Assembly: GCA_021735655.1 (NCBI GenBank)
Contig: JAIPGM010000001.1
Coordinates: 256,001 to 320,000, forward strand
DNA from: Candidatus Omnitrophota bacterium
GTDB taxonomy: Bacteria; Omnitrophota; Gorgyraeia; Duberdicusellales; 4484-171
Reading direction: 5' to 3'
DNA: 64,000 nt
Shown here: positions 1 to 21,049 of the stretch, in pieces
Numbering within the stretch: the first letter of the stretch is position 1
Layout of the letters: each line of letters begins with the position of its first letter
Translations under genes and position numbers: made by a program
The notes under the pieces: model-generated
Told to the model about the DNA's origin: nothing
Seen by the model: the letters and a program-made list of their open reading frames with translations, nothing else
Database searches by the model: none

Positions 1-640
1 GATAAGCAAAGAAATGAAGAAACGAAATATTAAAATTGAGTGGTCTTGTAGATCTAGGGTAGACGTAGTCGATGAGGATATAATTAAAGAGGCTAAATCT
101 ATAGGATGTAGACAGATATTGTTTGGGATAGAGTCGGCAGACCAACAAGTGCTACAAGGAATCCAAAAAAAAATAAGCATTGAAAAAGTTAAGGACAGCA
201 TTAAGCTTTGCAGGAAATACAATATTTTAACTATGGGTTTTTTCATGATCGGAAACCCCGGAGAAACCAGGGATAGCATAAATAGATCAATTAAATTCGC
301 AAAAGATCTAGGCTTGGATTTTGTGCAGTTTTGCAGGGCAATTGCTAAACCTAATTCAGGATTAAACGAGATACTGAAAAGTAAGACTGGTAAGGATTAT
401 TGGAGCGACTATATGCTTGGTAAGGAAAAGGAACGAAGGATGTTAACTCCTTGGGTTGACCTATCCCAAGAGGAGATAGAATATTATACAGTTAAAGCCT
501 ACCGTAGTTTTTACTTTCGACCTGTGCATATTCTCAAGATTACCTTAAAAGTAAAATCTTTTTCTGAATTTGTTAAGTATCTCCGGGTTGGATTACGGAT
601 GCTTTTTGGAAATAAAAAAGAATATGACCTTAAAAGATAA
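1..640 (+). CDS. B12-binding radical SAM protein, C-terminal part (5' end outside window)
   Basis: Reading frame is open from position 1 (no stop before the Met at 14). C-terminal motifs typical of class B rSAM enzymes: FGIESADQQVL, FMIGNPGETRDSI, LTPWVDLSQEEIEYY. Confidence 0.6.
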   Translation, partial: ISKEMKKRNIKIEWSCRSRVDVVDEDIIKEAKSIGCRQILFGIESADQQVLQGIQKKISIEKVKDSIKLCRKYNILTMGFFMIGNPGETRDSINRSIKFAKDLGLDFVQFCRAIAKPNSGLNEILKSKTGKDYWSDYMLGKEKERRMLTPWVDLSQEEIEYYTVKAYRSFYFRPVHILKITLKVKSFSEFVKYLRVGLRMLFGNKKEYDLKR

Positions 641-1616
641 ACTTCATTCTTTCAATTGTATGTTTAAAGTAAGGTTTTTAAAAAAAAGAATACCTTTGGC
701 GGTCCGTCTTCAGGTTACAAATCGCTGTACATTACAATGTAAATATTGCAATCTTTGGAACACAAAAACTGAAGAATTCACCAAAGAAGAAATATTTAGT
801 CTTATCGATCAATTAGCCGTTTTGGGGGCTAAAAGAATTTCTTTTAGTGGCGGAGAGCCGTTGCTAAGAAAAGATATAGGTGAGATCATAAGCTATTGCC
901 GAGAAAAAAGTATTTATCCTGAAATGAATTCCAATGGCACATTAGTGCCTGAAAGAGTAGATGAAATTAGTAACTTAGATTTTCTAAAATTGAGTCTAGA
1001 CGGGCCAAAAGAAATACACGATTTATTACGGGGCAAAGGTTCCTATGGACAGGTTCTAGCGGCTGCTGATTCTGTTTCTAAGAAGGGGATGAATTTTGGT
1101 TTTGCCACGACTTTAACAAAGTATAATATAGATCATCTTGATTTTCTTCTTGCTATAGCAGAAAAGTACAATACGATAGTGGCTTTTCAGCCTTTAAAGC
1201 AACTCTATCGAGGGATAAGTGACATTTCTAATTTAGCGCCATCTCAGGATAAATTTAAAAAGGCTATTGATAAGCTTATCCAAACTAAGAAATCCGGTAA
1301 TAGGCATATGCGTAATTCCCTTCGCGGACTTAAGCATATTTATAATTGGCCAAAATATAAAAAACTTAGATGCTGGTCGGGGCGGCTTTTTTGTATTATT
1401 AATGCCGATGGTGAGCTATTTCCTTGCGATAGAATTAATTATAATTCTCCGCTCCCGAATTGTAAAAAACAGGCCTTAAAGTTAGCTTTAGATCAGTTAC
1501 CTCAAGCGCATTGTTCGGGATGCGGTTTTTGTGGCTCTTTAGAGCTAAATTATCTTATGAATTTTAAACTCGATATTATTTCTTCGATAAGAAAGATATT
1601 AGATAAACAAGAATAA
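624..1616 (+). CDS. radical SAM/SPASM-domain protein, paralog A1
   Basis: KKRIPLAV..TNRCTLQCKYC (CxxxCxxC), FSGGEPLLRKDI, C-terminal Cys cluster (C..PCD...CSGCGFC). Start moved to ATG 624 (MTLKDK...) by alignment with paralog N-termini; the ORF track begins at 570. Confidence 0.8.
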   Translation: MTLKDKLHSFNCMFKVRFLKKRIPLAVRLQVTNRCTLQCKYCNLWNTKTEEFTKEEIFSLIDQLAVLGAKRISFSGGEPLLRKDIGEIISYCREKSIYPEMNSNGTLVPERVDEISNLDFLKLSLDGPKEIHDLLRGKGSYGQVLAAADSVSKKGMNFGFATTLTKYNIDHLDFLLAIAEKYNTIVAFQPLKQLYRGISDISNLAPSQDKFKKAIDKLIQTKKSGNRHMRNSLRGLKHIYNWPKYKKLRCWSGRLFCIINADGELFPCDRINYNSPLPNCKKQALKLALDQLPQAHCSGCGFCGSLELNYLMNFKLDIISSIRKILDKQE

Positions 1617-1626
1617 AGAAGGTTAT

Positions 1627-2916: not shown

Positions 2917-2918
2917 TC

Positions 2919-4196
2919 GTGGATAAAAATAATACTCATAATACATCTAAGAAGACCAAATATCGTTTAAGGGCAAAAGTTTGCATAAGTTTGTTTAGTC
3001 TGTTTTTTTCTTTAATCGTACTGGAGGTAGTTTTAAGAATTATTGGGCATGTTTATTTTTCATCGCGACCAACGGCAGATGAAATATTTGCAGAATTCCA
3101 AAATAAACAAGGCGAAAGAGTAATTTTGTGTATTGGTGATTCTTACACAGTTGGGGCTAACGTAGGAGAGAAAAACGCCTGGCCTAGTAAATTGCAGATT
3201 ATGCTGAATGAGGGGTATGGTGAAGGTAAATTTCACGTTGTTAATAGCGGTGTATGCGAGATCAATTCTGCTCAGGTTCTAGAGATATTACCTCGCTACA
3301 TAGAACGTTACAAACCTGAGATAATTATTTTTTTGGTTGGAGTTGCTAACCAATTCAATTTTATTGGATTCGACAGGGAAGCAGAAACCTATTTGAAATT
3401 GCCTAACTTTGTTTATAAGCTCAGAACTTACAAGATGTTAAGGATTGTAGCTTTAAATATTCGGCAAAAGATTTTTAAAGATAGTTTCGAGCAAGATAGT
3501 ACTTTTGCTACTCAAGCATCGCTATCAAAGCGTCAATTGAGTAAAGCTCTTAATCCAGACGAGCACATATTTGCAGAAATAGCAGATGCTGATTATGACT
3601 TAATTGAGCACCTAAGGGCGGCAGGTGAGCACGATAAAGCTTCTGATTTGTTTAGAAAATCGGTGTTGGTCATTGACCCTAATTCAGAATTGTTTGCTTA
3701 TTATGGTCCTGAATTTATACTTGATATATATGACGATATGTATAATAGCAAAACCTTGAGTGTGGATGAGGTGCTTTCTGATTTTAGAAAAAATCTAGAA
3801 AGTAACCCTAGTCTGAAAGATGATAAGGCGTTCATGGACTATTATTCGTATTTACAAAGTATAGATAAATTCTATAAAGCAAAAAGAATTGAGCAGCAGC
3901 TGATAAATGATTTGGATAAGATTATTAGTGTGTGTCGAGACAATAATGTCAGAATTGTTATCCAAAATTACCCTTACCCTTATCCAATGATTGACAAGGT
4001 CATAGCCGATGTAGCTCTCAAATATTCTTTAACTTTAGTCGATCAAGGCAGAATTTTTAGTAGGTTAATTGCTAGGAATAAAAGAGAGATTTATTTTCAA
4101 GATGATCTTCATTGCACCCCTTTGGGGTACCGGATTATGGCAGAAAACATATATAATGTTTTTAAGCAAGAGGATATCGGCAAAATAGAACCATAG
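2919..4196 (+). CDS. SGNH/GDSL hydrolase-family protein, membrane anchored
   Basis: GTG start preceded by AGGAGG. N-terminal TM helix. Block I ILCIGDSYTVGANVG. C-terminal DDLHCTPLGYRI (DxxH block V). Confidence 0.55.
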   Translation: MDKNNTHNTSKKTKYRLRAKVCISLFSLFFSLIVLEVVLRIIGHVYFSSRPTADEIFAEFQNKQGERVILCIGDSYTVGANVGEKNAWPSKLQIMLNEGYGEGKFHVVNSGVCEINSAQVLEILPRYIERYKPEIIIFLVGVANQFNFIGFDREAETYLKLPNFVYKLRTYKMLRIVALNIRQKIFKDSFEQDSTFATQASLSKRQLSKALNPDEHIFAEIADADYDLIEHLRAAGEHDKASDLFRKSVLVIDPNSELFAYYGPEFILDIYDDMYNSKTLSVDEVLSDFRKNLESNPSLKDDKAFMDYYSYLQSIDKFYKAKRIEQQLINDLDKIISVCRDNNVRIVIQNYPYPYPMIDKVIADVALKYSLTLVDQGRIFSRLIARNKREIYFQDDLHCTPLGYRIMAENIYNVFKQEDIGKIEP

Positions 4197-4208
4197 GGAG
4201 GTTAACAA

Positions 4209-4388
4209 ATGAAAAGAAAAACTAGTTTTAAACAGAATAAAGAGATTCTGTGGCAAATATTCTTTTTGATTAAAGAAAATAAGAAATGGTGGTTACTGCC
4301 TATATTTTTAGTATTAGTAATTTTAGGTTTATTTGTCAGCTTGACAGGAAATCAATCTATTTTGCCTGCAGTTTACGCTTTATTTTAA
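4209..4388 (+). CDS. small membrane protein (59 aa), DUF5989-like
   Basis: ORF just below the track cutoff: MKRKTSFKQNKEILWQIFFLIKENKKWWLLPIFLVLVILGLFVSLTGNQSILPAVYALF. It has the KKWWL..P single-TM pattern I recall for the DUF5989 family. GGAGG lies upstream. Confidence 0.45.
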   Translation: MKRKTSFKQNKEILWQIFFLIKENKKWWLLPIFLVLVILGLFVSLTGNQSILPAVYALF

Positions 4389-4403
4389 TATTACTGAAAT
4401 AAA

Positions 4404-4592
4404 ATGGCAACATTATTAAGAAAAGTTATTGCTTCTGTTGTTTGTTCTATAGCATTGCTATTGCCGCATAGACTTAGAATTATCTATTGCGAGATACTTG
4501 GCTGGTCGATGCAATTAATCTTTTGGGCTTATATTTCTATACTTAAATTTATAATAAAGTCACTTAAAGTGGGTAAAATTAAAACGCAATGA
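4404..4592 (+). CDS. small hydrophobic protein (62 aa), translationally coupled to the downstream PP-loop ATPase
   Basis: ORF whose stop overlaps the next start (ATGA at 4589-4592). Strongly hydrophobic. No recognisable domain. Confidence 0.3.
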   Translation: MATLLRKVIASVVCSIALLLPHRLRIIYCEILGWSMQLIFWAYISILKFIIKSLKVGKIKTQ

Positions 4593-5425
4593 AAGAGCTT
4601 GTTATTTTATACTCTGGCGGAACAGATTCAACCTGTGCCGCAGCTTTAATGGCTAAAGAGTTTGATAAGATCCATTTATTATCTTATACACGTTTTGGTG
4701 TATTTTCGATAGAAAATTCTAAAAAAAATGTCGAAAGGCTTGTAGAAAAATTCGGTAAAGATAAGTTTATTCATAAAATAATCGATGTAGATAAAATATT
4801 TCGAAAGGTATCGTATTCTAACTACATGCATAATCTTAGAAAACATAAGTTTGTTATGCTTACGATGTGTGGTTTGTGTAAAATAACTTTGCATATTCGT
4901 TCTTTAATGTATTGCTTAGACAATGATATAAAGTATGTGTGTGATGGTGTGGATAAAAGCATGGTTTTATTCCCAACCCACATGAGGGAGGTAGTTGGCT
5001 TAATCAAAGATATGTATTTTCGTTACGGAATTATCTATTCGTTGCCAGTATATGAATGTGGCACCCCTAGAAAAATAGGATATTTTGATAAATATAAATT
5101 AGATTTAAACATTTCAGAGCCAGATAATTTCGCTGTTGATTCTGAGTCGAACAATCCTACAACTGGTGAAATATTGCATAAAATGGGCATTTTTCCTTCG
5201 GATAATATTAAAGGAACAAAGCTTGATCATCAGATGCAGTATAGATGTTTTCAATTTATATTAACTTATATATTAGCACTTTGGTATTATTTGCCAAAAG
5301 ATGGTTATGAAAAATATAAGGATGTGTGTATAGAATTCTATAAAGAAAAGATAAATTATTTTTACCCTTTGTTAGATGAATATTTTAATAAAAAAGAAAG
5401 CAGTAGCCTAGCTAGATTGCGATAA
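4589..5425 (+). CDS. PP-loop ATP pyrophosphatase (adenine-nucleotide alpha-hydrolase superfamily)
   Basis: N-terminal SGGTDST PP-loop (SGGxDS), as in QueC/LarE/asparagine-synthetase-type enzymes. Cys cluster CGLCKITLH...C. Confidence 0.6.
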   Translation: MKELVILYSGGTDSTCAAALMAKEFDKIHLLSYTRFGVFSIENSKKNVERLVEKFGKDKFIHKIIDVDKIFRKVSYSNYMHNLRKHKFVMLTMCGLCKITLHIRSLMYCLDNDIKYVCDGVDKSMVLFPTHMREVVGLIKDMYFRYGIIYSLPVYECGTPRKIGYFDKYKLDLNISEPDNFAVDSESNNPTTGEILHKMGIFPSDNIKGTKLDHQMQYRCFQFILTYILALWYYLPKDGYEKYKDVCIEFYKEKINYFYPLLDEYFNKKESSSLARLR

Positions 5426-5486
5426 AATTTAAAAATAACGAGCCAGTGTGCAGAATTTGCTAAGGATAATAATTTAAATTAAGCCG

Positions 5487-6464
5487 ATGAAAAATATTGA
5501 GAAAGTAAGATTAGCTTGCGCTTTACTGAGAATAAAATTATTGAAAAAAAGAATACCTTTGATAGTTAGCTGGTCGTTAACCTATAGGTGTAATCATAAA
5601 TGTTTATATTGTGGCATTTGGGAAAAAACTTCGGATGAATTAAGCAACGAACAAATTTTTTCACTTATCGACCAAATGGCGGCGGCAGGGACTCAACGGA
5701 TACATTTTACCGGTGGTGAGCCCTTATTAAGAGATGATATCGATAAGATTCTGATTTATTGTAAAAAAAAGGGAATAAGTACTGCATTGAATTCTAATGG
5801 GTTTTTGATTCCTGAAAAAATAAAATCCCTTATTAATCTCGACTTATTGTCGTTAAGCTTAGATGGGCCAGAAGCGGTGCATGATTCCATCAGAGGTAAG
5901 GGCTCTTACCAACAAGTAATGGGAGCGATAGAGGCAGCTAAGAAAAATAATATAAAAATAAAAATAATAACCGTATTGTCAAAGTTAAATCTAGGCCATA
6001 TTGATTTTATTTTGCATAAAGCGCAGGAATTGAAGATTCCGGTTACTTTCCAACCGACGACGATTTCGGTGCTTGAGGGAAGTAAGCCTAACTCCATTGC
6101 CGCTATCAAAGAAGAGTATAATCAAGCAGTTAGCTATTTAATAAAAGAAAAAAGAAAAAACAAATATATAGGTAATTCTTGTTCAGGATTAAAACATCTT
6201 TATGATTGGCCATCACCGTCAAAAATTTCCTGTGTAAATAGTCGCATTATTTGTCGTCTTGAACCTGATGGCCGTCTTTATGGATGCAATGATTATAAAA
6301 ATAAAGGCCTTGCGGTAGATTGCATAACCCTTGGCTTTAAAAAAGCTTTTGATAGCCTTGTGCCTTTTGCTTGTGATGAATGCTGGTGCGCTTCACTTGT
6401 AGAATTAAACTGTTTATTTGCCATAAAATTAGATACTGTTTTTAGTATTATCAAGTTAATTTAA
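5487..6464 (+). CDS. radical SAM/SPASM-domain protein, paralog A2
   Basis: KKRIPLIVSWSLTYRCNHKCLYC, FTGGEPLLRDDI, LSLDGPEAVHDSIRGKGSY, C-terminal CxxC/CWC cluster. Confidence 0.8.
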   Translation: MKNIEKVRLACALLRIKLLKKRIPLIVSWSLTYRCNHKCLYCGIWEKTSDELSNEQIFSLIDQMAAAGTQRIHFTGGEPLLRDDIDKILIYCKKKGISTALNSNGFLIPEKIKSLINLDLLSLSLDGPEAVHDSIRGKGSYQQVMGAIEAAKKNNIKIKIITVLSKLNLGHIDFILHKAQELKIPVTFQPTTISVLEGSKPNSIAAIKEEYNQAVSYLIKEKRKNKYIGNSCSGLKHLYDWPSPSKISCVNSRIICRLEPDGRLYGCNDYKNKGLAVDCITLGFKKAFDSLVPFACDECWCASLVELNCLFAIKLDTVFSIIKLI

Positions 6465-6473
6465 TGATATGAA

Positions 6474-7463
6474 ATGAAAAAAGCCGAACTATTAGCTGCT
6501 TATAATTTGTCAAAGGCAAAATTTTTTAGGAAGAAAATTCCTTTAGTGGTCGGATGGTCTGTTACTAATAGATGTAACTGGCACTGTGCTTATTGTACGC
6601 GATGGAGTGATCATTCAGAAGAGCTAGATACAAAACAGATTTATTCTATTTTGGACGAATTATTTCAGATGGGCACCTATAGTATTAATTTTACTGGGGG
6701 TGAACCATTGATAAGAGATGATATAGATAGAATAGTTTATTATGCAAAAAGAAAAGGCATCAACGTAACCATTAGCAGTAACGGTTCGTTAGTATCCCAA
6801 AAGATTAAAGAGATTCGTAAAGCTAACCCCCTTATTATTATAAGCTATGATGGGCCGCAAGATGTGCATGGTAGGCAGAGGCAAAAAGATTCTTATCAAT
6901 CTGTGTTGGATGCGATCGAGGCAGCAAAAAAATGTAATATTTTTGTAAAACTTCATACAGTCTTGACTAGGCATAATATAGAGCATGTTGATTCTATATT
7001 AGATTTTGCCAAAAAGTTGGACCTAACTGTGAATTTTGCTGTTGTCGAGTTCACTCCTTTTAGTAAAGAAGAAGCAGTTAAGACTTTATTGCCACCAAAA
7101 GATAAGTATAAATCAGCACTTAAATATCTCATATTTGAAAAAAGAAAAGGTAATAGTAGCGTTAGTAATTCACTTAGTGGTTTGCAATACCTTGAGCAGT
7201 GGCCTGAGTATAGAAAAATAAATTGCTGTGCTGGAAGAATTTACTGTCGGATTGAGTCCAATGGTGATGTTTTTCCTTGTGGCAATTTAATTTTTAAAAG
7301 CAAACCTCGTAACTGTTTAGAATTAGGATTTAAAAATGCTTTCGAGAATATTGAATTTAATGATTGTAAATCCTGTTGGTGTGATACCAGAATTGAGTTG
7401 AATCGTATATATTCTTTTAATTTAGGAGCTATTTTAGAGGTAAAAAGAACTTATAAATTATAA
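6474..7463 (+). CDS. radical SAM/SPASM-domain protein, paralog A3
   Basis: KKIPLVVGWSVTNRCNWHCAYC, FTGGEPLIRDDI, C-terminal C..PCG...CKSCWC. Confidence 0.8.
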   Translation: MKKAELLAAYNLSKAKFFRKKIPLVVGWSVTNRCNWHCAYCTRWSDHSEELDTKQIYSILDELFQMGTYSINFTGGEPLIRDDIDRIVYYAKRKGINVTISSNGSLVSQKIKEIRKANPLIIISYDGPQDVHGRQRQKDSYQSVLDAIEAAKKCNIFVKLHTVLTRHNIEHVDSILDFAKKLDLTVNFAVVEFTPFSKEEAVKTLLPPKDKYKSALKYLIFEKRKGNSSVSNSLSGLQYLEQWPEYRKINCCAGRIYCRIESNGDVFPCGNLIFKSKPRNCLELGFKNAFENIEFNDCKSCWCDTRIELNRIYSFNLGAILEVKRTYKL

Positions 7464-7466
7464 TAT

Positions 7467-8846
7467 ATGAAACAGATTGAAACCGAAGTGCTTATTCTTG
7501 GTGGCGGGTTGAGCGGGCTAATAGCCGCAGAGCTTTTATCTAAAGAAAGAAAAAAAATATTTATTTTAGAAAAAGAGTCTGTATCCGGTGGTTTAGCAAC
7601 GACAGTTCAATTCGAGGGCTTTAAGTTTGATATCGGAGGGCATAGAGTTTGTTTTAATAAGTCAGAGAATATAAATTATTTTAAAGATATCCTTGGTGAA
7701 AAAAAGTTTTTATTTTTGAAGAGAAAAAGCAAGATCATGTTTAACGATAGATATGTAAATTACCCCTTGAGCATCGGTACCGCATTTAATGTAAAAAAAA
7801 TGCATTTATTAAAAATAGCTTTTGATAGGCTTGGTGTGTATTTAAAAAGACAAAATAACTTGACTCCAGATAATTTTGAAGATTGGATAAAGATACATTA
7901 CGGGAAAACATTGTACAATATGTTTTTCAAGGAATATACAGAGAAAGTCTGGGGCAGGCCGTGTGGCGAGCTTTCTTCTAGCTTGGGGATAAGGAGAATG
8001 GGTAGTAAAAAACTATCAAAATTAACTAAATGTATTTCTAGGGGTGACGATGCTTTCAGGGAAAGCGCCCGCTCTTTTTATTACCCTCAAGAAGGAATGG
8101 AGGCGTTAATTAATGCTTTCGAGCAAAAATTAGGTACTAGTTGTAATATTCACAAAAATGTTCGAATCGGAAAAATTACCAGGTCTAACGGAGGGCTGAG
8201 CTGTTTATTGGCCAGCTCTAAAGGAGAACCTTACAAGATAAATTTTAAATATATCTTTTCTTCAATACCGCTTACAGAGCTTTTTAAAGCATTATCTATT
8301 GATGGGTTAACTTTGCCTCACAATTTAGAAAAAGGAATACAATATAGAAGTTTAGTTTTGGTAAGTATGATTGTTAATAAGAAAAATATCTCCCGGTGGC
8401 ATTGGTGTTATTTTCCTTCCCGGAAAGTTATATTTTCAAGATTACATGAGCCAAAGTTTTGGAGTAATGGTATGGCTGTAGATGAGAACAAGACATTGAT
8501 ATGTGCAGAAGTGTTTTGTAACTACAATGATTCATGTTGGCTTATGAATGATCGTGACCTAGCAATAGCAGTAAAAGAAGGTTTAAAGATTAATAAATTA
8601 ATCGATAGTGATCAAGATGTAGGTAATTTTTGCGTAAAGAGGATAAGATATGCCTATCCGCTACCAACTTATGAGTATAAAAAATATTTATCCATAGCTA
8701 AAAAGGCACTTAGTTCTTTTAATAATCTTTTTTTAATAGGAAGGAATGGAACCCATTCTTATTTTAATATGGAAGAATGCCTCGATGATGTGAAAGAGAA
8801 GGTTAAATTTTTACATGAAAATAGCAGTAATTATCCCCGTAACTAG
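7467..8846 (+). CDS. FAD/NAD(P)-dependent oxidoreductase (amine-oxidase / UDP-galactopyranose-mutase-like fold)
   Basis: N-terminal Rossmann dinucleotide motif LILGGGLSGLIAAELL followed by LEKE. Confidence 0.55.
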   Translation: MKQIETEVLILGGGLSGLIAAELLSKERKKIFILEKESVSGGLATTVQFEGFKFDIGGHRVCFNKSENINYFKDILGEKKFLFLKRKSKIMFNDRYVNYPLSIGTAFNVKKMHLLKIAFDRLGVYLKRQNNLTPDNFEDWIKIHYGKTLYNMFFKEYTEKVWGRPCGELSSSLGIRRMGSKKLSKLTKCISRGDDAFRESARSFYYPQEGMEALINAFEQKLGTSCNIHKNVRIGKITRSNGGLSCLLASSKGEPYKINFKYIFSSIPLTELFKALSIDGLTLPHNLEKGIQYRSLVLVSMIVNKKNISRWHWCYFPSRKVIFSRLHEPKFWSNGMAVDENKTLICAEVFCNYNDSCWLMNDRDLAIAVKEGLKINKLIDSDQDVGNFCVKRIRYAYPLPTYEYKKYLSIAKKALSSFNNLFLIGRNGTHSYFNMEECLDDVKEKVKFLHENSSNYPRN

Positions 8847-9852
8847 ACCAGAGCAGGCCGCTATCTGCGTAGATGCCCTTTCAAAACAAAGTTTTCTTAA
8901 TTCTGAAATTGAAATTATCCTCATTAAAGATAAGGATCAGGTTATAGAATTAAAAAAAACTGATATAAAGATAATTATTATAGAAGAGGAAAATCCGCAC
9001 CCTGCTTTTCGGAGAAATTTAGGAGTAAAGCTAACTAATGCAAGGATATTGGCTTTTTTGGATGATGATACTATACCTTGCTCAGAGTGGCTTAGCGAAG
9101 CAGTTCGATACATCGAGAAAGAATCGGTAGATGGTGTTTGTGGGCCTGAATTGCAGTCGCAAAATAACTTATCACTGGGTTATACTCTGGCCGGGGCAGC
9201 TAATGAGACTTTTTTTGTAGAAGGAGTTGAGCGGATGAATGTTACTAGTGAGGGGCCAGTAAGATTTTATAATATTCGTTTATGTAATGTGATTATGAGG
9301 CGTAAAGTGTGGGAGGCCGTGGGAGGATTCAATGAAATAGCTAATTATCACATTGATGATATCGAGTTTTTTTATTTGGCTTGTAACAAAAAGTACAGGT
9401 TCCATTATATACCGAAGATGCTAGTTCACCATCGGCCAGAACCATTTCCTTTTAGATACCTAAAAAAGAAGTTTAACGAGCGGTTCTATACGGGCATGAA
9501 TGCTATGATGTTTAGGGAGATTTATTCATTGATTCCTCAGATATGGTTTGTATATTTACTATATCCGATCATAATTCTTATTTTTTTATTATTTTTTAGT
9601 AATAGCATGTATATCATGCCATTTTTAGCAATTTATTTTGGGCTAATTTTGTGGTTTTCCTACCCTTGGTTTCGGAAAAATAAAAAGATTTTTATTCTTT
9701 TGCCGATAGTATTTATATCGACGCATATAGTTGAGCTAATAGGTTTTTTAGCAGGTACTTTTTATTTTTTTGTTAACAGAAATTATGGGGATGTAACCGT
9801 TAGGATTAAACAGGGAAGATTAGAAAAATGCTCCGAAAGTTTGACGTTATAA
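8815..9852 (+). CDS. family-2 glycosyltransferase with C-terminal multi-TM domain (cassette copy 1)
   Basis: MKIAVIIPVTRP, LAFLDDDT (DxD-like), VGGFNE motif shared with the GT2 at 21075. Hydrophobic C-terminal third. Confidence 0.6.
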   Translation: MKIAVIIPVTRPEQAAICVDALSKQSFLNSEIEIILIKDKDQVIELKKTDIKIIIIEEENPHPAFRRNLGVKLTNARILAFLDDDTIPCSEWLSEAVRYIEKESVDGVCGPELQSQNNLSLGYTLAGAANETFFVEGVERMNVTSEGPVRFYNIRLCNVIMRRKVWEAVGGFNEIANYHIDDIEFFYLACNKKYRFHYIPKMLVHHRPEPFPFRYLKKKFNERFYTGMNAMMFREIYSLIPQIWFVYLLYPIIILIFLLFFSNSMYIMPFLAIYFGLILWFSYPWFRKNKKIFILLPIVFISTHIVELIGFLAGTFYFFVNRNYGDVTVRIKQGRLEKCSESLTL

Positions 9853-10904: not shown

Positions 10905-10939
10905 TATATTATAATTAATCTATTCATTTTGGAGTGTTG

Positions 10940-13559: not shown

Positions 13560-13569
13560 GATTGTAATT

Positions 13570-14586
13570 ATGAAAAAATTAAAAATATTGTTATCTAAAT
13601 ATGCGTCATTGCTGAGGGCGACATTTTATAGCCGGAGATTACCTAACGCCTTTAAATCTTTGCTTTCTTATATGTTTCGAAGGCCTAAGGCGTGGGGTTT
13701 GCCGCCAATTGTCCAGATAGAACCGACCACTAATTGCAATCTGAAATGTGCCCTGTGCCTTACTGGTAGAGGTCAATTAAAGAGGCTTAAAGGAGATATG
13801 TCTTTTGATTTTTTTAAAGAAATAATAAACCAGCTGGAAGATATCATAATTTACTTAGTTATGTATAATTTAGGCGAACCTTTATTAAATAAAGAAATAT
13901 TCAAAATGATAGAGTATGCAAAGATGAAGAAGATTTTTATTAGACTCAGTACCAATGGTGCATTTTTGAGCAAGCAAGACATAGAGAATTTAGTTAGATT
14001 TAAAGTAGACGAGGTGATTATTTCTCTTGATTGTGCAAATTCAGAGATATACGAAAAGTATAAGGGGAGTGATGGTTTCAAAAAAGTTATTGAAAATACA
14101 GGTTTGCTAATTAAACAGCGGGGAGACAACTTGAAGCCTTTCGTTGATTTGCAAGTTTTAGCCATGAGAGGTATTGAGAGGGACATTATTCATTTTAAGG
14201 AATTAGCACGGAATCTGGGGGTTGATCGGGCCTTAATCAAGAAGTTGCGTGTTAACTTTCCAGGAATTCCTTCAGATGAAAGTTTTTTGCCTAAAAATTC
14301 AAGATATGTTCGAAAAGCATATCGAAAAAAAACTTACAAAAGCAATAATTGCTATAAACTGTGGTTATCAACGCTTATTTTGTGGGATGGGGTGGTTGTT
14401 CCTTGTTGTTTTGATATGGAGGGGCATTATTCTTTAGGAAGTATATTGCAGGTGGAATTGAAGCAAATTTGGAATAGCGATAAGTATAAATTATTTCGAA
14501 AGAATGCATCGAAGGGTGCGGGTAAAACATCTTTGTGCAAAGATTGCAGTTTGGGTTGTTTATCGGGGGATTTATCGCTTTTGTGA
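13570..14586 (+). CDS. radical SAM/SPASM-domain protein, type C
   Basis: IEPTTNCNLKCALCLTG (CxxxCxxC). C-terminal VVPCCFD...CKDCSLGC. Confidence 0.75.
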   Translation: MKKLKILLSKYASLLRATFYSRRLPNAFKSLLSYMFRRPKAWGLPPIVQIEPTTNCNLKCALCLTGRGQLKRLKGDMSFDFFKEIINQLEDIIIYLVMYNLGEPLLNKEIFKMIEYAKMKKIFIRLSTNGAFLSKQDIENLVRFKVDEVIISLDCANSEIYEKYKGSDGFKKVIENTGLLIKQRGDNLKPFVDLQVLAMRGIERDIIHFKELARNLGVDRALIKKLRVNFPGIPSDESFLPKNSRYVRKAYRKKTYKSNNCYKLWLSTLILWDGVVVPCCFDMEGHYSLGSILQVELKQIWNSDKYKLFRKNASKGAGKTSLCKDCSLGCLSGDLSLL

Positions 14587-14608
14587 TAGCAGAATTAATT
14601 GAATATTT

Positions 14609-15466
14609 ATGAAAAAAGTTATAATCAATGCTGATGATTTTGGGTTAACTGAAGGAATTAATAAAGGAATAATAGAAGCACATAAGAAAGGGGCAGTGAC
14701 TAGTGCATCATTAATGACAAATATGCCATCATTTTATGATGCTATAAGGTTAGCTAAAGATAATCCTGGTTTGGGTGTGGGGGTTCATCTTAATATTGTG
14801 CGCGGTGAGCCGGTTCTTCCTTTAGGGAACGTTAGAACGCTTGTTGATAAAGAAGGTTTTTTCCTGCGAAATATTTTTAAAATTATAGCAGGCATATATC
14901 AGAATAAAATAGATTTGATTGAGCTTGAGTCGGAATGGGTTGCTCAGATTGAGAGAGCTTTAGAAAATGGAATGTCAGTTACTCATCTAGATAGCGAAAA
15001 GCATCTGCATTTGATAGGGCCAGCTTTAAAGATTCTTAAAGTGTTGGCAAAACGCTATAAGATATCAAAAATAAGAGCGATTAATGAGCCTATGTATTTT
15101 AATAAGATATTTTCGAACCCTTTTTGCATTTTTAGAAAATGTTTTTATAAAACACTAGTTGTTAATTTGTTATCAAACCAAATGCAGGGCTTAAGATCTA
15201 CTGATTATTTTTACGGTTCTTACGAAGCAGGCAATATGATTTTAGAAAAATATCAAAATTTGTTTTCTTGCCTAGAGGATGGTCTTACTGAAATAATGTG
15301 TCATCCAGGCTATATCATCGGAGAGCAAGAGCGTACTTTACTTAATTATAATAGATATTCGCTAATCGGTAAACGCGAACGCGAATTGCAGGCATTGATT
15401 AATCCAAAGTTCAGCGAATTAGTGAAGCAATTCAATATAAGTTTAGTTAGTTATAAGGATGTATAA
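14609..15466 (+). CDS. ChbG/HpnK (YdjC-like) carbohydrate deacetylase-family protein
   Basis: N-terminus MKKVIINADDFGLTEGINKGIIEAHKKGAVTSASLM matches the YdjC family signature. Confidence 0.7.
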   Translation: MKKVIINADDFGLTEGINKGIIEAHKKGAVTSASLMTNMPSFYDAIRLAKDNPGLGVGVHLNIVRGEPVLPLGNVRTLVDKEGFFLRNIFKIIAGIYQNKIDLIELESEWVAQIERALENGMSVTHLDSEKHLHLIGPALKILKVLAKRYKISKIRAINEPMYFNKIFSNPFCIFRKCFYKTLVVNLLSNQMQGLRSTDYFYGSYEAGNMILEKYQNLFSCLEDGLTEIMCHPGYIIGEQERTLLNYNRYSLIGKRERELQALINPKFSELVKQFNISLVSYKDV

Positions 15467-15478
15467 GTTAAAGGCGGC

Positions 15479-16219
15479 ATGATAAAAGATATTTCTGTAA
15501 TTATACCTTTGCATAATGAATCCAAGAATATAATGATTCTTTATGACAAGTTAAAAAAGGAATTAGAGCGCTTGAGTAGGGATTATGAGATTATTTTTGT
15601 GGATGATGGGTCCGACGACGATACCTTCAGAATATTAACTGATATTTACGAGAAGGATACCTCAGTAAACATTATTAGTTTTGATAGAAATTATGGCCAA
15701 ACCGCCGGTTTGGCCGCAGGATTTAAGTTTGCAAAGGGAAATATTATTATTACCATGGACGGAGACTTGCAGCATGATCCAGAGGATATTCATAAGTTTA
15801 TCGATAAAATTCAGGACGGTTACGATATGGTAGGTGGGTGGAAAGTTAAAAGATCCGATAACTTTTTTACAAGAAGGCTGCCATCTTTAATTGTAAATAG
15901 AGTAATTTCTTTTTTATTTAAGGTAAAGATGCACGAAGTAAGTTCAACTTATAAGGCTTACAAGAAAGACGTGGTCAAAAATATATTTTTGTACGGTGGT
16001 TTGCATCGTTTTATCCCTTTACTTATTGAAAGCAATTGTTCAGTGTGCGAGGTAGAGATAAGGCACAATAAAAGGCTTTATGGCAAGTCCCATTACAATA
16101 TCGGCAGGGTAGGGAGTGTTATTCACGATTTAGTAATGTTATTGTGGGCGCGTGGTGATAAAAGCTCTAAGCCAAAAAAGCTTGTTTATTCAATAAAAGA
16201 CATGAAATATCATAAGTAA
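15479..16219 (+). CDS. family-2 glycosyltransferase, polyprenyl-phosphate sugar synthase-like (Dpm1/ArnC-like)
   Basis: VIIPLHNESKNI, FVDDGSDDDT, MDGDLQHDPEDI (DxD and QxxD motifs). Confidence 0.7.
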   Translation: MIKDISVIIPLHNESKNIMILYDKLKKELERLSRDYEIIFVDDGSDDDTFRILTDIYEKDTSVNIISFDRNYGQTAGLAAGFKFAKGNIIITMDGDLQHDPEDIHKFIDKIQDGYDMVGGWKVKRSDNFFTRRLPSLIVNRVISFLFKVKMHEVSSTYKAYKKDVVKNIFLYGGLHRFIPLLIESNCSVCEVEIRHNKRLYGKSHYNIGRVGSVIHDLVMLLWARGDKSSKPKKLVYSIKDMKYHK

Positions 16220-16229
16220 ATATATCATT

Positions 16230-17837
16230 ATGACTACAGCGCGATATTCAAAAAATACAGAAAGACTTTTGTTGGGTATTTTGGCGGTGATTTCTCTTTT
16301 GGTTACTTTATATTGCCAGTACCCTTTGTTGACAAATAAATATGCGATTAACGATGATGTGCGCCAAGAAATCTACTTTTATAGTAATTACAATAATAGT
16401 AATCTTTTTCGGAACGATCCAATAACTGATTATTACCGAAGTTGGAATCCTTCGGGATTAAATACATTTTATTATTTTGCAAGCCTGTTTCATGATCCGA
16501 TAGGGGTTACAAAAATATTACCTTTTTTTCTTTGTGTGTTTTCGGCGCTTTACATGTTCGGGATAGGTAAGATATTGAAAGGTAATCTTTGTGGATTCTT
16601 AAGCGGCCTTTTGTTTATTTCTTTAGCCTGGAGCAGAGAGGCTTTTGAAGTTTTTGGTACCGGCAATGGAGAAGATTTTGCGGTAGTTTTCTGTGTGATG
16701 TTTTTGTATTATCTATTGAAAAAAGATTTACTTAAGTCTAGTATAACTTTGATTTTGCTTTCACTTTTCCACCCGTCCTTACTTCTAATTTGTCTATTGA
16801 CTCAATTTTTAGTTTTGATTATAGATTGCCTGAAACATAATAAATCAGCCTCAAAGAAACTATTGGGTTTTATGATAACCTTAATAATAATATTTTTAAT
16901 ATTGTGGCCAAAATATTTATCTGGTCAAATAAAGCTTACTAAATTAAAAGAGATGAAGGCCATGGAGGAGTTTTATCCCGGAGGGAGAAAACCACTTTTT
17001 TTTGAGTCTAGTTATGAACGCTGGACTAACTACGAGAGTGGTTTGGCAATAGATTATCCTTTGAGATGGTTGTTTGGGGTCGCTTCGATCGCCCTCCTTG
17101 TTCTCAGAAAGAAAATTTTGAAGGTTATGCCACCGCAGCTGTTTTATTTTATATTTATTTCTTTTGTATTGTTTGGGATCGCAAATTTATTCATGTATTC
17201 GCTATACGGTCCTTCAAGATATGTTAGATATCCGTTACCTTTATTTTTAATTTTTATTATAACCTTAGGTGTTAGTGAGATTACACAAAAGATAAAGGTG
17301 TCAGCAGGCAGGATAGCACTTATAACAGGGTTTATCGCCTTGATTGGTTTATCCTTTGCGCCTAAGCTACATGCTCATTATGTCGTAGCTCCCTATCCCG
17401 GCCTTTATAGGTTTTTATCAACGCTTCCTGAAAGTAGTCTTATTGCCGGACACCCGGTTTTAATGGATGATGTGCCTACTTTTGCCAAAAGAATAGTGTT
17501 TATTAGTCAAGAAACCTCTATGCCTTATTACGCTAATTTTTATCCTTTCATTAAGAAGCGCACCTATGATTTTTTCCGGGCCTATTATTCTAATGATTTG
17601 CGAGAAATTGATGATTTTTTTAAAAAGTATAATATAACCCACATGGTTGTCCAAAAAAGTAATTTTTCCGAGGACTACATAAAAAGATCTCAATTTTATT
17701 TTAATCCTTTTAATGCTTACGTTGAAGATATTATAAAGAATAGAAAGAAATTTGCCTTAATGGACGTCCCTCAAGATAGCAGATTGTTTGAGACCGAAGA
17801 TGTTTTTGTGATCGCAAAGGATAGCCTTGTTTTCTAA
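16230..17837 (+). CDS. polytopic membrane protein, GT-C-like
   Basis: Many TM helices. Acidic loop INDDVRQE after TM1. C-terminal soluble domain. Confidence 0.4.
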   Translation: MTTARYSKNTERLLLGILAVISLLVTLYCQYPLLTNKYAINDDVRQEIYFYSNYNNSNLFRNDPITDYYRSWNPSGLNTFYYFASLFHDPIGVTKILPFFLCVFSALYMFGIGKILKGNLCGFLSGLLFISLAWSREAFEVFGTGNGEDFAVVFCVMFLYYLLKKDLLKSSITLILLSLFHPSLLLICLLTQFLVLIIDCLKHNKSASKKLLGFMITLIIIFLILWPKYLSGQIKLTKLKEMKAMEEFYPGGRKPLFFESSYERWTNYESGLAIDYPLRWLFGVASIALLVLRKKILKVMPPQLFYFIFISFVLFGIANLFMYSLYGPSRYVRYPLPLFLIFIITLGVSEITQKIKVSAGRIALITGFIALIGLSFAPKLHAHYVVAPYPGLYRFLSTLPESSLIAGHPVLMDDVPTFAKRIVFISQETSMPYYANFYPFIKKRTYDFFRAYYSNDLREIDDFFKKYNITHMVVQKSNFSEDYIKRSQFYFNPFNAYVEDIIKNRKKFALMDVPQDSRLFETEDVFVIAKDSLVF

Positions 17838-17854
17838 AGGAGTTTACGCTAGCC

Positions 17855-19072
17855 ATGTTTATAAAAGCTATACCACCGCATAGGATAGCCGTTACATATA
17901 AAGAAATGTTAAAGCTATTAAGCCTTTTTTTCCAGAGGAAGCTTATGGAGGGCGATTCTATTGAGGAATTTGAACAGAGGTTTGCTGAATATATCGGAAC
18001 CGAATCGGCCTGTGCTGTTTCCTCGGGAAGATACGGATTGAAATTGATACTAGAGTCTTTAGGGCTAAAAAAAGGCGATGAAATAATTATCCCGGCTTAT
18101 ACTTTTTATGTTGTTCCCGAAGTGGTCAAAAAGGCGGGGTTTGTCCCGGTGTTCGTGGACATAAACGCTAATGATTATAATATAGATACCCGATGTATAG
18201 AAGAGAAAATTACCGAAAAGACAAAAGTTATCATTGCGGTACACCTTTTCGGAAAACCTTGCGAATTGGATAGAATATCAGAGATTGCTAAAAAGCATGG
18301 TTTGTTCGTGATTGAAGATTGTGCACAGTCAATTGGCGCTGAATATCGAAATAAAAAAGTCGGATCTTTCGGTAATTGTGCCTATTTCAGTTTTGAAACA
18401 GTAAAACCTTTTCATACTTTCGGCGGAGGAATGATAGTAACTAGTAACAAATCATTACATCAAAAGTTAAAAAAAGCTACGCAGGTATGTTCTTACCCGA
18501 AGTATTCGGGAGTTGCTAAGAAGATATTTTTTACCATTATGGAATCAATGTTAACCAGCTATTTTTTGTTCACAATTTTTATATACCCACTTTTTTTCCT
18601 GGCCATGATTTTTGGTAAAGATCTTAAGAAAGTCGCCAAGCGGACAAAGGGAAAATTTAAGTTGCTTCAGACAAGGTATACTAATTTTCAGGCTTCAATA
18701 GGAATTCTTAAATTTGGAGCCTTAGATTTTCAACTTGAAAGAATGATTATGAATGTAAAGCTTCTAAATGAAAGATTAGATCAAAGTATAGCCACTCAGA
18801 ATTTAGACGACCATACTAAGCCTATATTTTATTACTTTGTTGTTAAAAGCAAAAATAGGAAGAATTTTTCTAATGTTTTATTCCGTAAGGGGATAATCGG
18901 GACTACTAATATGGCACAAAATTGCTGTAAGGATAGTTCTCTCGGCGATTATTATCCGGTTGCCCGGGAAGCGGATGCCGATCTTTTTCAAATACCGGTA
19001 TACAGTAATTTTTCTTTAAAAGACATTGAGCGTTTGTCTAGCATTCTAAATAGGTATTTTAAACAAGAATAG
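17855..19072 (+). CDS. DegT/DnrJ/EryC1/StrS-family PLP-dependent sugar aminotransferase
   Basis: DCAQSIGAEY, FSFETVKPF (PLP-lysine region), overall family length and architecture. Confidence 0.65.
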   Translation: MFIKAIPPHRIAVTYKEMLKLLSLFFQRKLMEGDSIEEFEQRFAEYIGTESACAVSSGRYGLKLILESLGLKKGDEIIIPAYTFYVVPEVVKKAGFVPVFVDINANDYNIDTRCIEEKITEKTKVIIAVHLFGKPCELDRISEIAKKHGLFVIEDCAQSIGAEYRNKKVGSFGNCAYFSFETVKPFHTFGGGMIVTSNKSLHQKLKKATQVCSYPKYSGVAKKIFFTIMESMLTSYFLFTIFIYPLFFLAMIFGKDLKKVAKRTKGKFKLLQTRYTNFQASIGILKFGALDFQLERMIMNVKLLNERLDQSIATQNLDDHTKPIFYYFVVKSKNRKNFSNVLFRKGIIGTTNMAQNCCKDSSLGDYYPVAREADADLFQIPVYSNFSLKDIERLSSILNRYFKQE

Positions 19073-19077
19073 CGAAA

Positions 19078-20058
19078 ATGAAGTCGTATAAAAAATTATT
19101 GGTTGGCGGTGCTATACTCGGAAAAATATTGTTGAAGAAAAGGACACCACTTCTGGTTAGTTGGGTAATCACCGAGAGGTGTAATTATCGTTGTAAATAT
19201 TGCAGTATTTGGAATAAAAAAGTAAGAGATTTAGATTATCAGAATGTTTGCGCTGTCATTGATAAATTATCGAAATGGGGAACTAAAGCTATAGCTTTCA
19301 TTGGAGGCGAACCGCTTTTGCGTGATGATATAGGAAAGATTTTAAAGTATTGTTATCAGAAAGGAATATATACCAAGTTAACCACCAATGGTTCTTTAAT
19401 TTCTAAAAAGCTAGACCAGATTAAAGACGTCGGGTCTGTTAAGTTGAGTTTTGACGGCCCCAAAGAGGTACATGATTCAAACCGCCAGTCGGGTTCTTAT
19501 GAGCATGCTATCGGCGCTGCAGAGCTGCTAAAGAAATCCAAGATTAAAGTGATCTTTAATTGTGTTATTTCTAAAACGAATGTGGAAAGGCTTGATTACG
19601 TATTGTTAATTGCCGCTAAGCTCGGTATCAGAGTTACTTTCCAACCTTTGGAGTTTCGCAATGATCAGGATTTCATATTCGACAATATGCCTTCGGAAGC
19701 TAAATATAAAAAAGCCATAAATAGGCTTATATATGAAAAGAAAAGAGGAAATAGGTACATTGCTAATTCGCTGCCCGGCTTACGATATTTGTATAATTGG
19801 CCCCATGGCAAAGAGTTAAAGTGCTGGGCCGGAACGCTTCATTTTAGGATAGGTCCTCAAGGCAGTTTTTCTGCTTGTGACAGGATTCCTGACGGCTACT
19901 TACCGTTTGATATTTTGAAAGGAGATTTTAAGTCAGCCCTTAAGGGTATGCGGCCCCCCAACTGTAGCCAAGGTTGCTGGCGGAACACAACCATTGAGTT
20001 AAATTATCTTTTATCTCTGCATCCTTTGGCGATATTAAATGCGGTTAATGTCTTTTAA
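19078..20058 (+). CDS. radical SAM/SPASM-domain protein, paralog A4
   Basis: KKRTPLLVSWVITERCNYRCKYC, FIGGEPLLRDDI, FDGPKEVHDS, C-terminal CSQGCW. Confidence 0.8.
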   Translation: MKSYKKLLVGGAILGKILLKKRTPLLVSWVITERCNYRCKYCSIWNKKVRDLDYQNVCAVIDKLSKWGTKAIAFIGGEPLLRDDIGKILKYCYQKGIYTKLTTNGSLISKKLDQIKDVGSVKLSFDGPKEVHDSNRQSGSYEHAIGAAELLKKSKIKVIFNCVISKTNVERLDYVLLIAAKLGIRVTFQPLEFRNDQDFIFDNMPSEAKYKKAINRLIYEKKRGNRYIANSLPGLRYLYNWPHGKELKCWAGTLHFRIGPQGSFSACDRIPDGYLPFDILKGDFKSALKGMRPPNCSQGCWRNTTIELNYLLSLHPLAILNAVNVF

Positions 20059-21049
20059 ATGGGTAATGAAATTAATAAATAAAATAGCTTCTCTTAAATC
20101 TATCCTAAAGGCTAAATGCTTTTCTTACCGGATTCCTTTAATAGTAAGTTGGCATTTGGTTAATCGATGCAATCGAAAATGTAAATATTGTTATCGATGG
20201 AGCACCGTTGAGAAAGAACTATCCAGCGATGAGGTTTTTTGCGTAATCGATGTATTGTCTCAAATGGGCAACCAGGTGATAATATTTAGCGGCGGAGAGC
20301 CTTTACTTAGGGATGATATAGGTAAAATCATAGATTATAGTCAGGCTAAGGGTATCTTTACGGGGTTGACCTCTAACGGTGATTTAGTCCCAGAAAGAAT
20401 AAATGAGATTAAGGGATTGGATATGCTAAAGATAAGTTTCGATGGTCCGAAAGATGTACATGATTTTTTAAGGGGTAAAGGGTCATATGACAATGTTATG
20501 GTGGCCATTGAAACGGCAAAAAAATACAACATCAAGGTTAAGTTCAATACTACTTTAACTAAATATAATATAGAATATATAGATTTCATTTTGGAAAAGG
20601 CAAAGCAATTAAATGTAAAAGTAAAATTTCAACCGGTTAGCCATGTGCACTCAGCCGGAAAAGACATTCGCGATTTTTTTCCCGAGATTAAAGAGTATAA
20701 ACAGGCGGTTCAAAGGTTGATCGACTCAAAAAGGACTAATAAATTTATTATTAATTCGATTGCTAGCCTTAACTATCTTAGTACTTGGCCGCACCCTCTA
20801 AAATTAAAATGTTATGCCGGAAAATTAATCTGTTGCATCACAGCTAATGGAAAAGTTTGGCCTTGTTCAGCGGCGCGTGAGGAATCTTATCATTTGAACT
20901 GTTTAGACCCAAAATTTAAAAAGATGTTTGCTCGAGGGTTGGCTATGCCATTTTGTCAGGGCTGTTGGTGCTCAAGTACTTTGGAACTAAATTGCCTGAT
21001 GAAGTTTAACCTTAATACAATTTTAAACATTAGAAGATTATTTGATTGA
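20039..21049 (+). CDS. radical SAM/SPASM-domain protein, paralog A5
   Basis: YRIPLIVSWHLVNRCNRKCKYC, FSGGEPLLRDDI, FDGPKDVHDFLRGKGSY, CQGCWC. True start may be ATG 20048 or 20066. Confidence 0.8.
   Translation: MRLMSFKWVMKLINKIASLKSILKAKCFSYRIPLIVSWHLVNRCNRKCKYCYRWSTVEKELSSDEVFCVIDVLSQMGNQVIIFSGGEPLLRDDIGKIIDYSQAKGIFTGLTSNGDLVPERINEIKGLDMLKISFDGPKDVHDFLRGKGSYDNVMVAIETAKKYNIKVKFNTTLTKYNIEYIDFILEKAKQLNVKVKFQPVSHVHSAGKDIRDFFPEIKEYKQAVQRLIDSKRTNKFIINSIASLNYLSTWPHPLKLKCYAGKLICCITANGKVWPCSAAREESYHLNCLDPKFKKMFARGLAMPFCQGCWCSSTLELNCLMKFNLNTILNIRRLFD

Follow-up and report, generated by a model that had tools for sequence, protein, structure and literature searches.

A family of radical SAM paralogs with twitch/SPASM-like C-terminal domains in an envelope-glycan gene cluster of an Omnitrophota bacterium

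BtrN is a twitch-type radical S-adenosylmethionine (SAM) enzyme that carries one auxiliary [4Fe-4S] cluster bound by four cysteines, and oxidizes a carbinol to a ketone in a two-electron reaction (PMC9012708). In butirosin biosynthesis, BtrN is combined with BtrS, an aminotransferase of the DegT family. The DegT aminotransferase DesI and the radical SAM deaminase DesII perform consecutive steps on one nucleotide sugar in the desosamine pathway. A further pairing of radical SAM and DegT-type proteins is that of BlsE with BlsH. We analyzed a 64,000-nucleotide stretch of DNA (“the window”) from the metagenome-assembled genome of a Candidatus Omnitrophota bacterium (GenBank assembly GCA_021735655.1, contig JAIPGM010000001.1, positions 256,001 to 320,000, forward strand). 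Five paralogous radical SAM genes, A1 to A5, lie in the window within a cluster of envelope-glycan genes, and one of them directly follows a DegT gene.

The resemblance of these genes to the described systems is partial. BlsE, the cytosylglucuronic acid radical SAM enzyme of blasticidin S biosynthesis (PDB 7vob), is 15–17% identical to the A family with a profile E-value of 1e-13, a range that it shares with viperin and MoaA. It belongs to a Streptomyces antibiotic pathway, whereas the A family occurs in an envelope-glycan cluster and has four invariant auxiliary cysteines. The DegT protein of the window matches the DesI model with 128 bits. On balance, we favor the reading that the A family consists of radical SAM enzymes that tailor sugars or lipid-linked glycans and are not peptide maturases, and we regard this reading as reasonably probable. 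For the A4 type, the logic would be that of BtrN and BtrS.

The paralogs, their cysteines and their family

The five genes occupy positions 624–1616 (A1), 5487–6464 (A2), 6474–7463 (A3, in tandem with A2), 19078–20058 (A4) and 20066–21049 (A5) of the + strand. The A5 reading frame reaches up to 20039; its start is probably the annotated one at 20066, and the public record, which is 100% identical to A5 and lies on a 341-kb contig, gives a protein of 327 amino acids (aa). The initial annotation had grouped these co-directional open reading frames (ORFs) of about 330 aa into one paralog family, and we agree. In end-to-end alignments their pairwise identity is 35–45% across ~325 aa, and all five match the Pfam Radical_SAM model (PF04055) with 85–107 bits against a cut-off of 29.5, which places them in the radical SAM superfamily. 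The motifs listed for them earlier (KKRIPL, CxxxCxxC, GGEPLLRDDI, SNG, DGP..HD..R..SY and L.YL..WP) are present with small deviations. C35, C39 and C42, as well as G76-G77-E78-P79, are invariant in A1 to A5. Across 58 homologs, the three cysteines of CxxxCxxC and G76-G77-E78 are also invariant, and P79 is nearly so. An AlphaFold2 model of A5 (predicted local distance difference test, pLDDT, 94.4) has a short N-terminal helix, a radical SAM core from residue 26 and C-terminal helices. In this model, a beta-hairpin at residues 255–265 lies between the conserved C249 and C267 (A5 numbering).

The C-terminal region required a revised description. A “7-Cys SPASM-like region” had been ascribed to all five proteins. 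Their C-termini are indeed cysteine-rich, but only A1 and A3 have seven cysteines there; A2 and A5 have eight and A4 has four, and the SPASM pattern is only half present. A canonical SPASM domain (PF13186, TIGR04085) follows the pattern CX9-15GX4C, a gap, CX2CX5CX3C, another gap and a final C, and holds two auxiliary clusters. The twitch domain, of the BtrN, MoaA and SkfB type, is a truncated SPASM domain in which a cysteine-flanked beta-hairpin and further cysteines hold one auxiliary cluster. The first SPASM half (C257-x5-G-x4-C268) occurs in four of the five paralogs, while the second half is CX2CX1-2C in place of CX2CX5CX3C. When the C-terminal domains were scored in isolation against the Pfam SPASM model (cut-off 21.5 bits), A1 reached 22.7 bits over model positions 1–40 of 67 only. 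The other four paralogs fell below the threshold: A5 scored 15.9 bits, A3 12.5 bits, and A2 and A4 gave no match. The NCBIfam SPASM-domain models matched none of A1 to A5.

Conservation in the wider family adds to this description. Among 284 family members, the only conserved C-terminal cysteines are C250, C268, C297 and C300 (A1 numbering), each at 96–100%. Others are variable (C257 68%, C280 51%, C302 71%, C310 19%), and they do not co-vary cleanly in the family alignment; cysteines 257, 280 and 302, considered as ligands of an optional second cluster, are not gained or lost jointly. Given the variable cysteines, the missing CX2CX5CX3C block and the marginal, partial SPASM score, we call the domain twitch/SPASM-like. 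Judged by its sequence, it is not a canonical SPASM domain, the match being confined to the twitch-like first half. The four invariant cysteines, which are the only C-terminal cysteines of A4, flank the predicted beta-hairpin and form a CxxC. This arrangement is consistent with one auxiliary cluster that would be fully ligated by cysteine.

We found no curated radical SAM subfamily to which A1 to A5 belong. In the NCBIfam equivalog test, a whole-protein score must reach the cut-off of the curated model. The best model, PTO1314, scored 97–123 bits against a cut-off of 306. Scores were also far too low for NirJ (90–122 versus 515), AhbD (85–108 versus 500), MftC (83–110 versus 265), PqqE (69–92 versus 381), MoaA (67–98 versus 284), HpnH (56–70 versus 225) and anSME (61 versus 349). 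Thus, none of the curated families NirJ, AhbC, AhbD, MftC, PqqE, anSME, MoaA, HpnH and PTO1314 was reached, and the family remains unassigned. The initial annotation had reasoned that a confident placement in a housekeeping subfamily with conserved synteny would overturn its view. No such placement emerged; synteny is conserved, but with glycan-biosynthesis genes. Public databases name the proteins no more precisely than “radical SAM protein” or “MoaA/NifB/PqqE/SkfB family”.

The family is large. When 1.84 billion representatives were searched with a profile, no fewer than 150 full-length clusters (50% identity) were retrieved with E < 1e-92. Members with a named source come from, among others, Omnitrophota, Elusimicrobia, Planctomycetes (Planctomycetia and Phycisphaeraceae) and Myxococcota (Deltaproteobacteria/Polyangiaceae), as well as the DPANN archaea Woesearchaeota, Iainarchaeum and “Diapherotrites”. 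A1 orthologs in other Omnitrophota are 63–66% identical to A1.

Conserved neighbors and natural fusions

Another Omnitrophota contig (L004/L005, in our numbering of loci) carries genes in the order SGNH hydrolase, A2, A3, a 535-aa protein of the GT-C glycosyltransferase fold, DegT, A4, SGNH hydrolase and A5. Each of its radical SAM genes is nearest to a different paralog of the window, so that they are one-to-one orthologs of A2 (362 bits), A3 (371 bits), A4 and A5 with their order kept. It follows that the duplications are old, and that each copy has been retained and is not redundant.

A4 begins 5 nucleotides after the end of the DegT gene (17855–19072), and the same pair occurs in L004 and in L003, a “Diapherotrites” locus. 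Thus, the pairing is a feature of the A4 type. The two proteins are also fused in nature. Protein P0147 (737 aa) consists of a DegT domain followed by an A-family domain, and P0206 (734 aa) has the reverse order. Since each of these fusions recurs in two or more independent samples or assemblies, with contigs up to 148 kb long, they are not assembly artefacts. The radical SAM half of P0147 has the four-cysteine pattern of A4 together with A4's motif CWRNTTIELNYLLS, and A4 is its closest paralog in the window.

The DegT partners share an additional property. DegT/DnrJ/EryC1 aminotransferases are normally soluble, and a hydrophobic insertion midway through the fold is unusual. Such an insertion is present at about residues 224–257 (about 231–257 in the window protein) in the window, in L004 (gene at 6555–7766), L003 (8690–9940), L006 and L016, and in P0147. 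This suggests that the DegT proteins paired with the A family work at the membrane. A 727-aa ORF in a metagenome-assembled genome of Elusimicrobiales (L010, 7821–10004) joins an HpnJ-like, B12-binding radical SAM protein to a polyprenyl-phosphate glycosyltransferase of family GT2 (AglJ/ArnC/PpgS-like), and lies directly upstream of an A1-type gene. This is a single instance, and it could reflect read-through in sequencing or assembly. Together, the DegT insertion and this fusion suggest that the chemistry takes place at the membrane.

The gene upstream of DegT (16230–17837) encodes the 535-aa protein, for which neither Pfam nor NCBIfam gave a match. Its AlphaFold2 model (pLDDT 91.7) was matched by Foldseek with a probability of 1.0 to DPY19, STT3/PglB/AglB, AftA and ArnT. 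Homologs have a near-invariant DD pair (D42/D43) in the first loop, and one remote homolog carries DUF2079. The trio of GT-C protein, DegT and A4, with the GT-C gene first, is conserved in the window, L004/L005 and L003. According to the structural model, the 535-aa protein looks like an unannotated GT-C family that is kept beside DegT and an A4-type gene.

A1-type genes are repeatedly preceded by a B12-radical SAM gene and in many cases followed by a flippase-like gene, both in the window and in L006, L007, L010, L017 and L018. The B12-radical SAM homolog is directly upstream in L006, L007, L010 and L018. Flippase-like homologs adjoin A-family genes in L001, L007, L010 and L016, and orthologs of the SGNH hydrolases flank A-family genes in L004 and L001.

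We quantified these associations for neighbors within 10 kb by Fisher tests, comparing 15 non-redundant A-family loci with 55 control loci of other radical SAM genes. The controls were recovered by the same scan, which used the single generic pattern GGEPLLR[DEK]D; most of what it returned was unrelated radical SAM genes, with NirJ-like ones from Pseudomonas and Stutzerimonas among them. B12-radical SAM genes were found at 13 of 15 family loci versus 7 of 55 controls (p = 1e-7), GT2 genes at 8 versus 2 (p = 2.5e-5), DegT genes at 6 versus 2 (p = 8e-4) and flippase-like genes at 4 versus 0 (p = 0.0015). Neighbors resembling the PMT2 and 535-aa proteins were detected at only 0–1 of the 15 loci by single-query blastp, a method that is insensitive for divergent GT-C proteins. 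Given that Pfam annotation shows PMT_2, DUF2079 or YfhO in L001, L004, L086 and L088, the GT-C association is under-counted. Related contigs also carry Glyco_transf_9 and ABC2_membrane according to Pfam.

Proposed chemistry and alternative explanations

The evidence for carbohydrate tailoring is the glycan-gene context, the DegT fusions, the conserved trio, the enrichment of neighbors, the retained one-to-one orthologs, and the lack of a precursor or a recognition domain. A further point in favor is that the 64-kb window encodes no sugar dehydratase or dehydrogenase of the short-chain dehydrogenase/reductase (SDR) type that would give DegT a keto sugar. From these we infer the substrate class, a dehydrogenase chemistry and the order of steps as follows. 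The CxxxCxxC cluster would cleave SAM to give a 5′-deoxyadenosyl radical, which would take a hydrogen atom from a carbon of a sugar ring. The sugar could be nucleotide-linked, or could already sit on a polyprenyl-phosphate carrier that the ArnC/DPM1-like GT2 enzymes make. The four-cysteine auxiliary [4Fe-4S] cluster would accept the second electron, yielding a keto sugar. Oxidation is proposed for A4 because the four invariant cysteines of the family parallel the four-cysteine auxiliary cluster of BtrN. In the A4 type, the adjacent or fused, membrane-associated DegT protein might then turn the keto group into an amine, and the adjoining GT-C enzyme might transfer the finished sugar at the membrane's outer face. 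This specific coupling of an A4-type dehydrogenase to a DegT aminotransferase is an analogy, and we offer it only tentatively. The other paralogs may carry out analogous hydrogen abstractions (oxidation, dehydration, epimerization or C-C chemistry) at different positions, or on different sugars. They might work with the B12-radical SAM enzyme, which is the partner of A1, with the deacetylases and with the FAD (flavin adenine dinucleotide) enzyme of the cluster.

Several points weigh against tailoring of this kind. There is one DegT gene for five paralogs in the window, and DegT genes lie near fewer than half of the family loci. With so few DegT partners, a role in oxidation and transamination would apply at most to the A4 type. 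The strongest neighbor association is with B12-radical SAM enzymes. A supplier of keto sugar for DegT might also lie in another part of the genome. For the auxiliary clusters, the number is deduced from cysteine patterns. Finally, searches of the literature turned up no relevant work on the family, or on radical SAM enzymes in combination with GT-C, DegT or DUF2079.

The alternative implied by the initial annotation is that A1 to A5 mature peptides or proteins, in the manner of a sactisynthase, anSME or an enzyme for peptides that are made on ribosomes and modified after translation (RiPPs), with a substrate that is remote or is a small or neighboring protein. Among solved structures, CteB, SkfB and anSME are indeed the closest in sequence, and SkfB, SuiB and anSME are near the top in fold searches. 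Radical SAM enzymes with SPASM or twitch domains are often RiPP enzymes (PMC9012708). However, A1 to A5 differ from anSME, SkfB, CteB, SuiB and PqqE in lacking a recognition domain, a precursor and the CX2CX5CX3C block, and they score far below the cut-offs of every maturase model, including those for anSME, MftC, PqqE and sactipeptide enzymes. The absence of precursor ORFs, reported earlier, was borne out: between 1 and 24 kb the intergenic gaps range from −32 to +100 nucleotides, beside A1 to A5 they measure 0–61 nucleotides, and none of them contains a free ORF of at least 20 aa. An N-terminal peptide-recognition domain has no room in the A family, whose core begins at about residue 26 in the A5 model, and Pfam found no PqqD-like gene in the window. 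With neither a precursor gene nor a recognition element, the features of a RiPP or peptide maturase are missing. The only small ORFs of the island are the two hydrophobic ones noted before. One (4209–4388, +) encodes a 59-aa DUF5989 membrane protein (Pfam E = 3.2e-14) with one hydrophobic segment, and the other (4404–4592, +) a 62-aa hydrophobic protein without a family match; the pair lies directly 3′ of two SGNH hydrolase genes. These ORFs had been put forward as possible substrates, which we consider a poor fit, as both are membrane proteins and both are absent from the orthologous cluster L004/L005, which retains four paralogs. A ScmC, PqqD and radical SAM cassette does occur about 5 kb from a family member in L003 (14908–17080), but its radical SAM gene is not of the A family, and the cassette seems to form a peptide-modification system of its own. 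Peptide maturation is therefore disfavored, since precursor and recognition domain are missing and conservation of the family does not extend to the small ORFs, and the consistent location among glycan genes and the DegT fusions add to this. We judge it very unlikely, and the orphan peptide-maturase framing is not supported.

It is less improbable, though still unlikely, that the enzymes act, much as HpnH or Tes do, on the lipid moiety of a carrier or membrane lipid (polyprenyl, hopanoid-like or membrane-spanning) and not on the sugar. The best models for some neighbors are Hpn-like, namely HpnJ for the B12-radical SAM protein and HpnK for the YdjC protein, the LPG_synthase_TM protein is HpnL-like, and the SGNH neighbors belong to a “lipase” family. 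Yet all Hpn and Tes matches are below their cut-offs: the full-length L006 ortholog of the B12-radical SAM gene scores 173 bits for HpnJ against 577.6, the YdjC protein 178 for HpnK against 232.6, and A1 to A5 at most 70 for HpnH, and the HpnL model gave no match. The window also lacks a gene for a squalene or isoprenoid cyclase, and the DegT fusions point to a carbohydrate, given that the DegT family acts on keto sugars and inososes. A role as housekeeping cofactor enzymes, of the NirJ/AhbC/AhbD heme, MoaA, PqqE or MftC type, would account for NirJ, AhbD, AhbC, MftC and MoaA being among the top NCBIfam matches (70–122 bits), but is effectively refuted by scores that are 3–7 fold under the curated cut-offs. 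Nor does it fit five copies in one cluster, conserved synteny with glycan genes, or surroundings without heme, molybdopterin, pyrroloquinoline quinone or mycofactocin genes.

Remaining genes of the cluster and implications

The cluster spans positions 14–29339, a ~30-kb envelope-glycan region of 29 tightly packed genes, all on the + strand, with gaps of mostly 0–30 nucleotides and several overlaps. It contains nine radical SAM genes: A1 to A5 and four of other families that the initial annotation had not counted (14–640, 9828–10904, 13570–14586 and 22058–23164). The following genes are likewise on the + strand. The first (14–640) encodes the C-terminal part of the B12-binding radical SAM protein; it is truncated by the edge of the window, runs at its end into the beginning of A1, and its HpnJ score of 107 bits is below the cut-off. 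Two SGNH/GDSL hydrolase-like proteins (1627–2916 and 2919–4196; Pfam Lipase_GDSL_2) each have an N-terminal membrane anchor of one hydrophobic segment. A PP-loop ATPase-like protein (4589–5425) shows weak similarity to QueC, NAD synthase and the WbuX sugar amidotransferase (E ~1e-4). An FAD-dependent oxidoreductase (7467–8846) is a relative of the amine oxidases and of UDP-galactopyranose mutase (Pfam Amino_oxidase, NAD_binding_8 and GLF; PRK07208-type 257 bits, below cut-off).

Two modules identified with Pfam and NCBIfam combine a GT2 gene with a radical SAM gene. Module a (8815–10904) consists of a GT2 protein with C-terminal membrane helices (8815–9852) and a 358-aa radical SAM protein (9828–10904). 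Module b (21075–23164) consists of a GT2 protein with membrane helices (21075–22058) and a 368-aa radical SAM/SPASM protein (22058–23164). The modules are paralogous, with radical SAM proteins that are 36% identical and GT2 proteins that are 26% identical, and in both the radical SAM start overlaps or abuts the GT2 gene. A comparable pair with a 357-aa radical SAM protein occurs in L088 (3588–5665).

Downstream of module a lies a polysaccharide deacetylase with DUF3473 (10934–11764; Pfam; 240 bits versus 276 for the NCBIfam XrtA-system deacetylase). It is followed by a PMT_2-type GT-C membrane glycosyltransferase that is ArnT/PMT-like (11865–13559; Pfam PMT_2 E = 5e-9) and has multiple membrane helices. 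The 338-aa radical SAM protein at 13570–14586 has a canonical SPASM domain (Pfam SPASM 59 bits) and belongs to a family distinct from A1 to A5; its score for tungsten-cofactor maturase, 127 bits, is below the cut-off. The YdjC-family carbohydrate deacetylase (14609–15466) scores 218 bits for Pfam YdjC and 172 for ChbG against 227. It precedes a GT2 protein resembling polyprenyl-phosphate sugar transferases of the ArnC/DPM1 kind (15479–16219; Glycos_transf_2 114 bits; ArnC 150 bits, below cut-off). The DegT/DnrJ/EryC1 protein, a pyridoxal phosphate-dependent sugar aminotransferase, matches its Pfam model with 246 bits and the PseC, ArnB and DesI models with 128–160 bits, below their cut-offs.

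After module b come the flippase-like LPG_synthase_TM membrane protein (23166–24107; Pfam 134 bits; TIGR00374 59 bits, which passes the cut-off of 43), a GT2 protein resembling polyprenyl-phosphate sugar synthases (24239–24982), a secreted DUF3108-like protein (25125–25886), two GT4 glycosyltransferases (26096–28348) and an initiating transferase of the WecA/MraY family (28335–29339). The end of the last gene overlaps by ~80 nucleotides a gene on the − strand (29259–30524) for a 421-aa multi-pass membrane protein, which may be O-antigen ligase/polymerase-like (IctB family 54 bits versus 366). Apart from this gene, all genes up to 56 kb are on the + strand, and the GC skew is steadily positive. 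The G+C content is ~34% over 1–31 kb versus ~38% in the downstream housekeeping region (32000–64000); a lower G+C is characteristic of surface-polysaccharide islands. On the − strand, two neighboring genes for pilin- or pseudopilin-like proteins (56946–57530 and 57608–58234) have near-identical N-terminal 29 residues (MKKSFTLIELIVVIAIIAILAAIIAPNAF) and then diverge.

As a whole, the cluster resembles two known pathways. It shares with the Arn pathway (ArnB, ArnC, ArnD, ArnT) a DegT protein, a lipid-carrier GT2 protein, a deacetylase/deformylase, a flippase-like protein and a GT-C enzyme, and with the Hpn pathway (HpnI, HpnJ, HpnK, HpnL) a B12-radical SAM gene and a YdjC deacetylase. By contrast with both, its genes are below the ortholog cut-offs, an ArnA-type dehydrogenase is missing, and it has nine radical SAM genes. 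We therefore rejected membership in the hopanoid pathway (HpnH/I/J/K/L), for which all scores are below cut-off and the HpnI and HpnL models matched no window protein. We also rejected the Arn pathway, where the ArnC, ArnB and ArnT-like matches are below cut-off and ArnA is absent.

A broader and rather doubtful extension is that these genes belong to a shared toolkit, based on radical SAM chemistry and independent of nicotinamide adenine dinucleotide (NAD), in Omnitrophota, Elusimicrobia, some Planctomycetes and Myxococcota, and DPANN archaea. Unusual sugars, such as amino, deoxy, branched or ring-contracted ones, would be built on polyprenyl-phosphate at the membrane. A4-type enzymes and membrane-inserted DegT proteins would replace the route through an SDR dehydratase and an aminotransferase, and unannotated GT-C enzymes would install the products on the envelope. 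If so, a single cluster with nine radical SAM enzymes would imply that the envelope glycans are of an undescribed chemical type.

Sugar-modifying radical SAM enzymes and twitch/SPASM domains are already known, and the A family does not open up a new category. Its novelty lies in a combination of features: an unnamed family of large size with up to five paralogs per locus and nine radical SAM genes in the cluster, located in envelope-glycan loci of uncultured anaerobes, with natural DegT fusions. SPASM and twitch genes serve as beacons for peptide natural products, but this large and widespread branch sits in envelope-glycan clusters instead. The natural DegT fusions offer an experimentally tractable entry point. 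Should the chemistry differ from our proposal, the family remains a well-delimited, unnamed annotation target, for which Pfam and NCBIfam give only “radical SAM protein”. If the proposed chemistry is true, the family would represent a route to modified sugars that is independent of oxygen and NAD, and it would predict unknown surface glycans in phyla whose envelopes have scarcely been studied.

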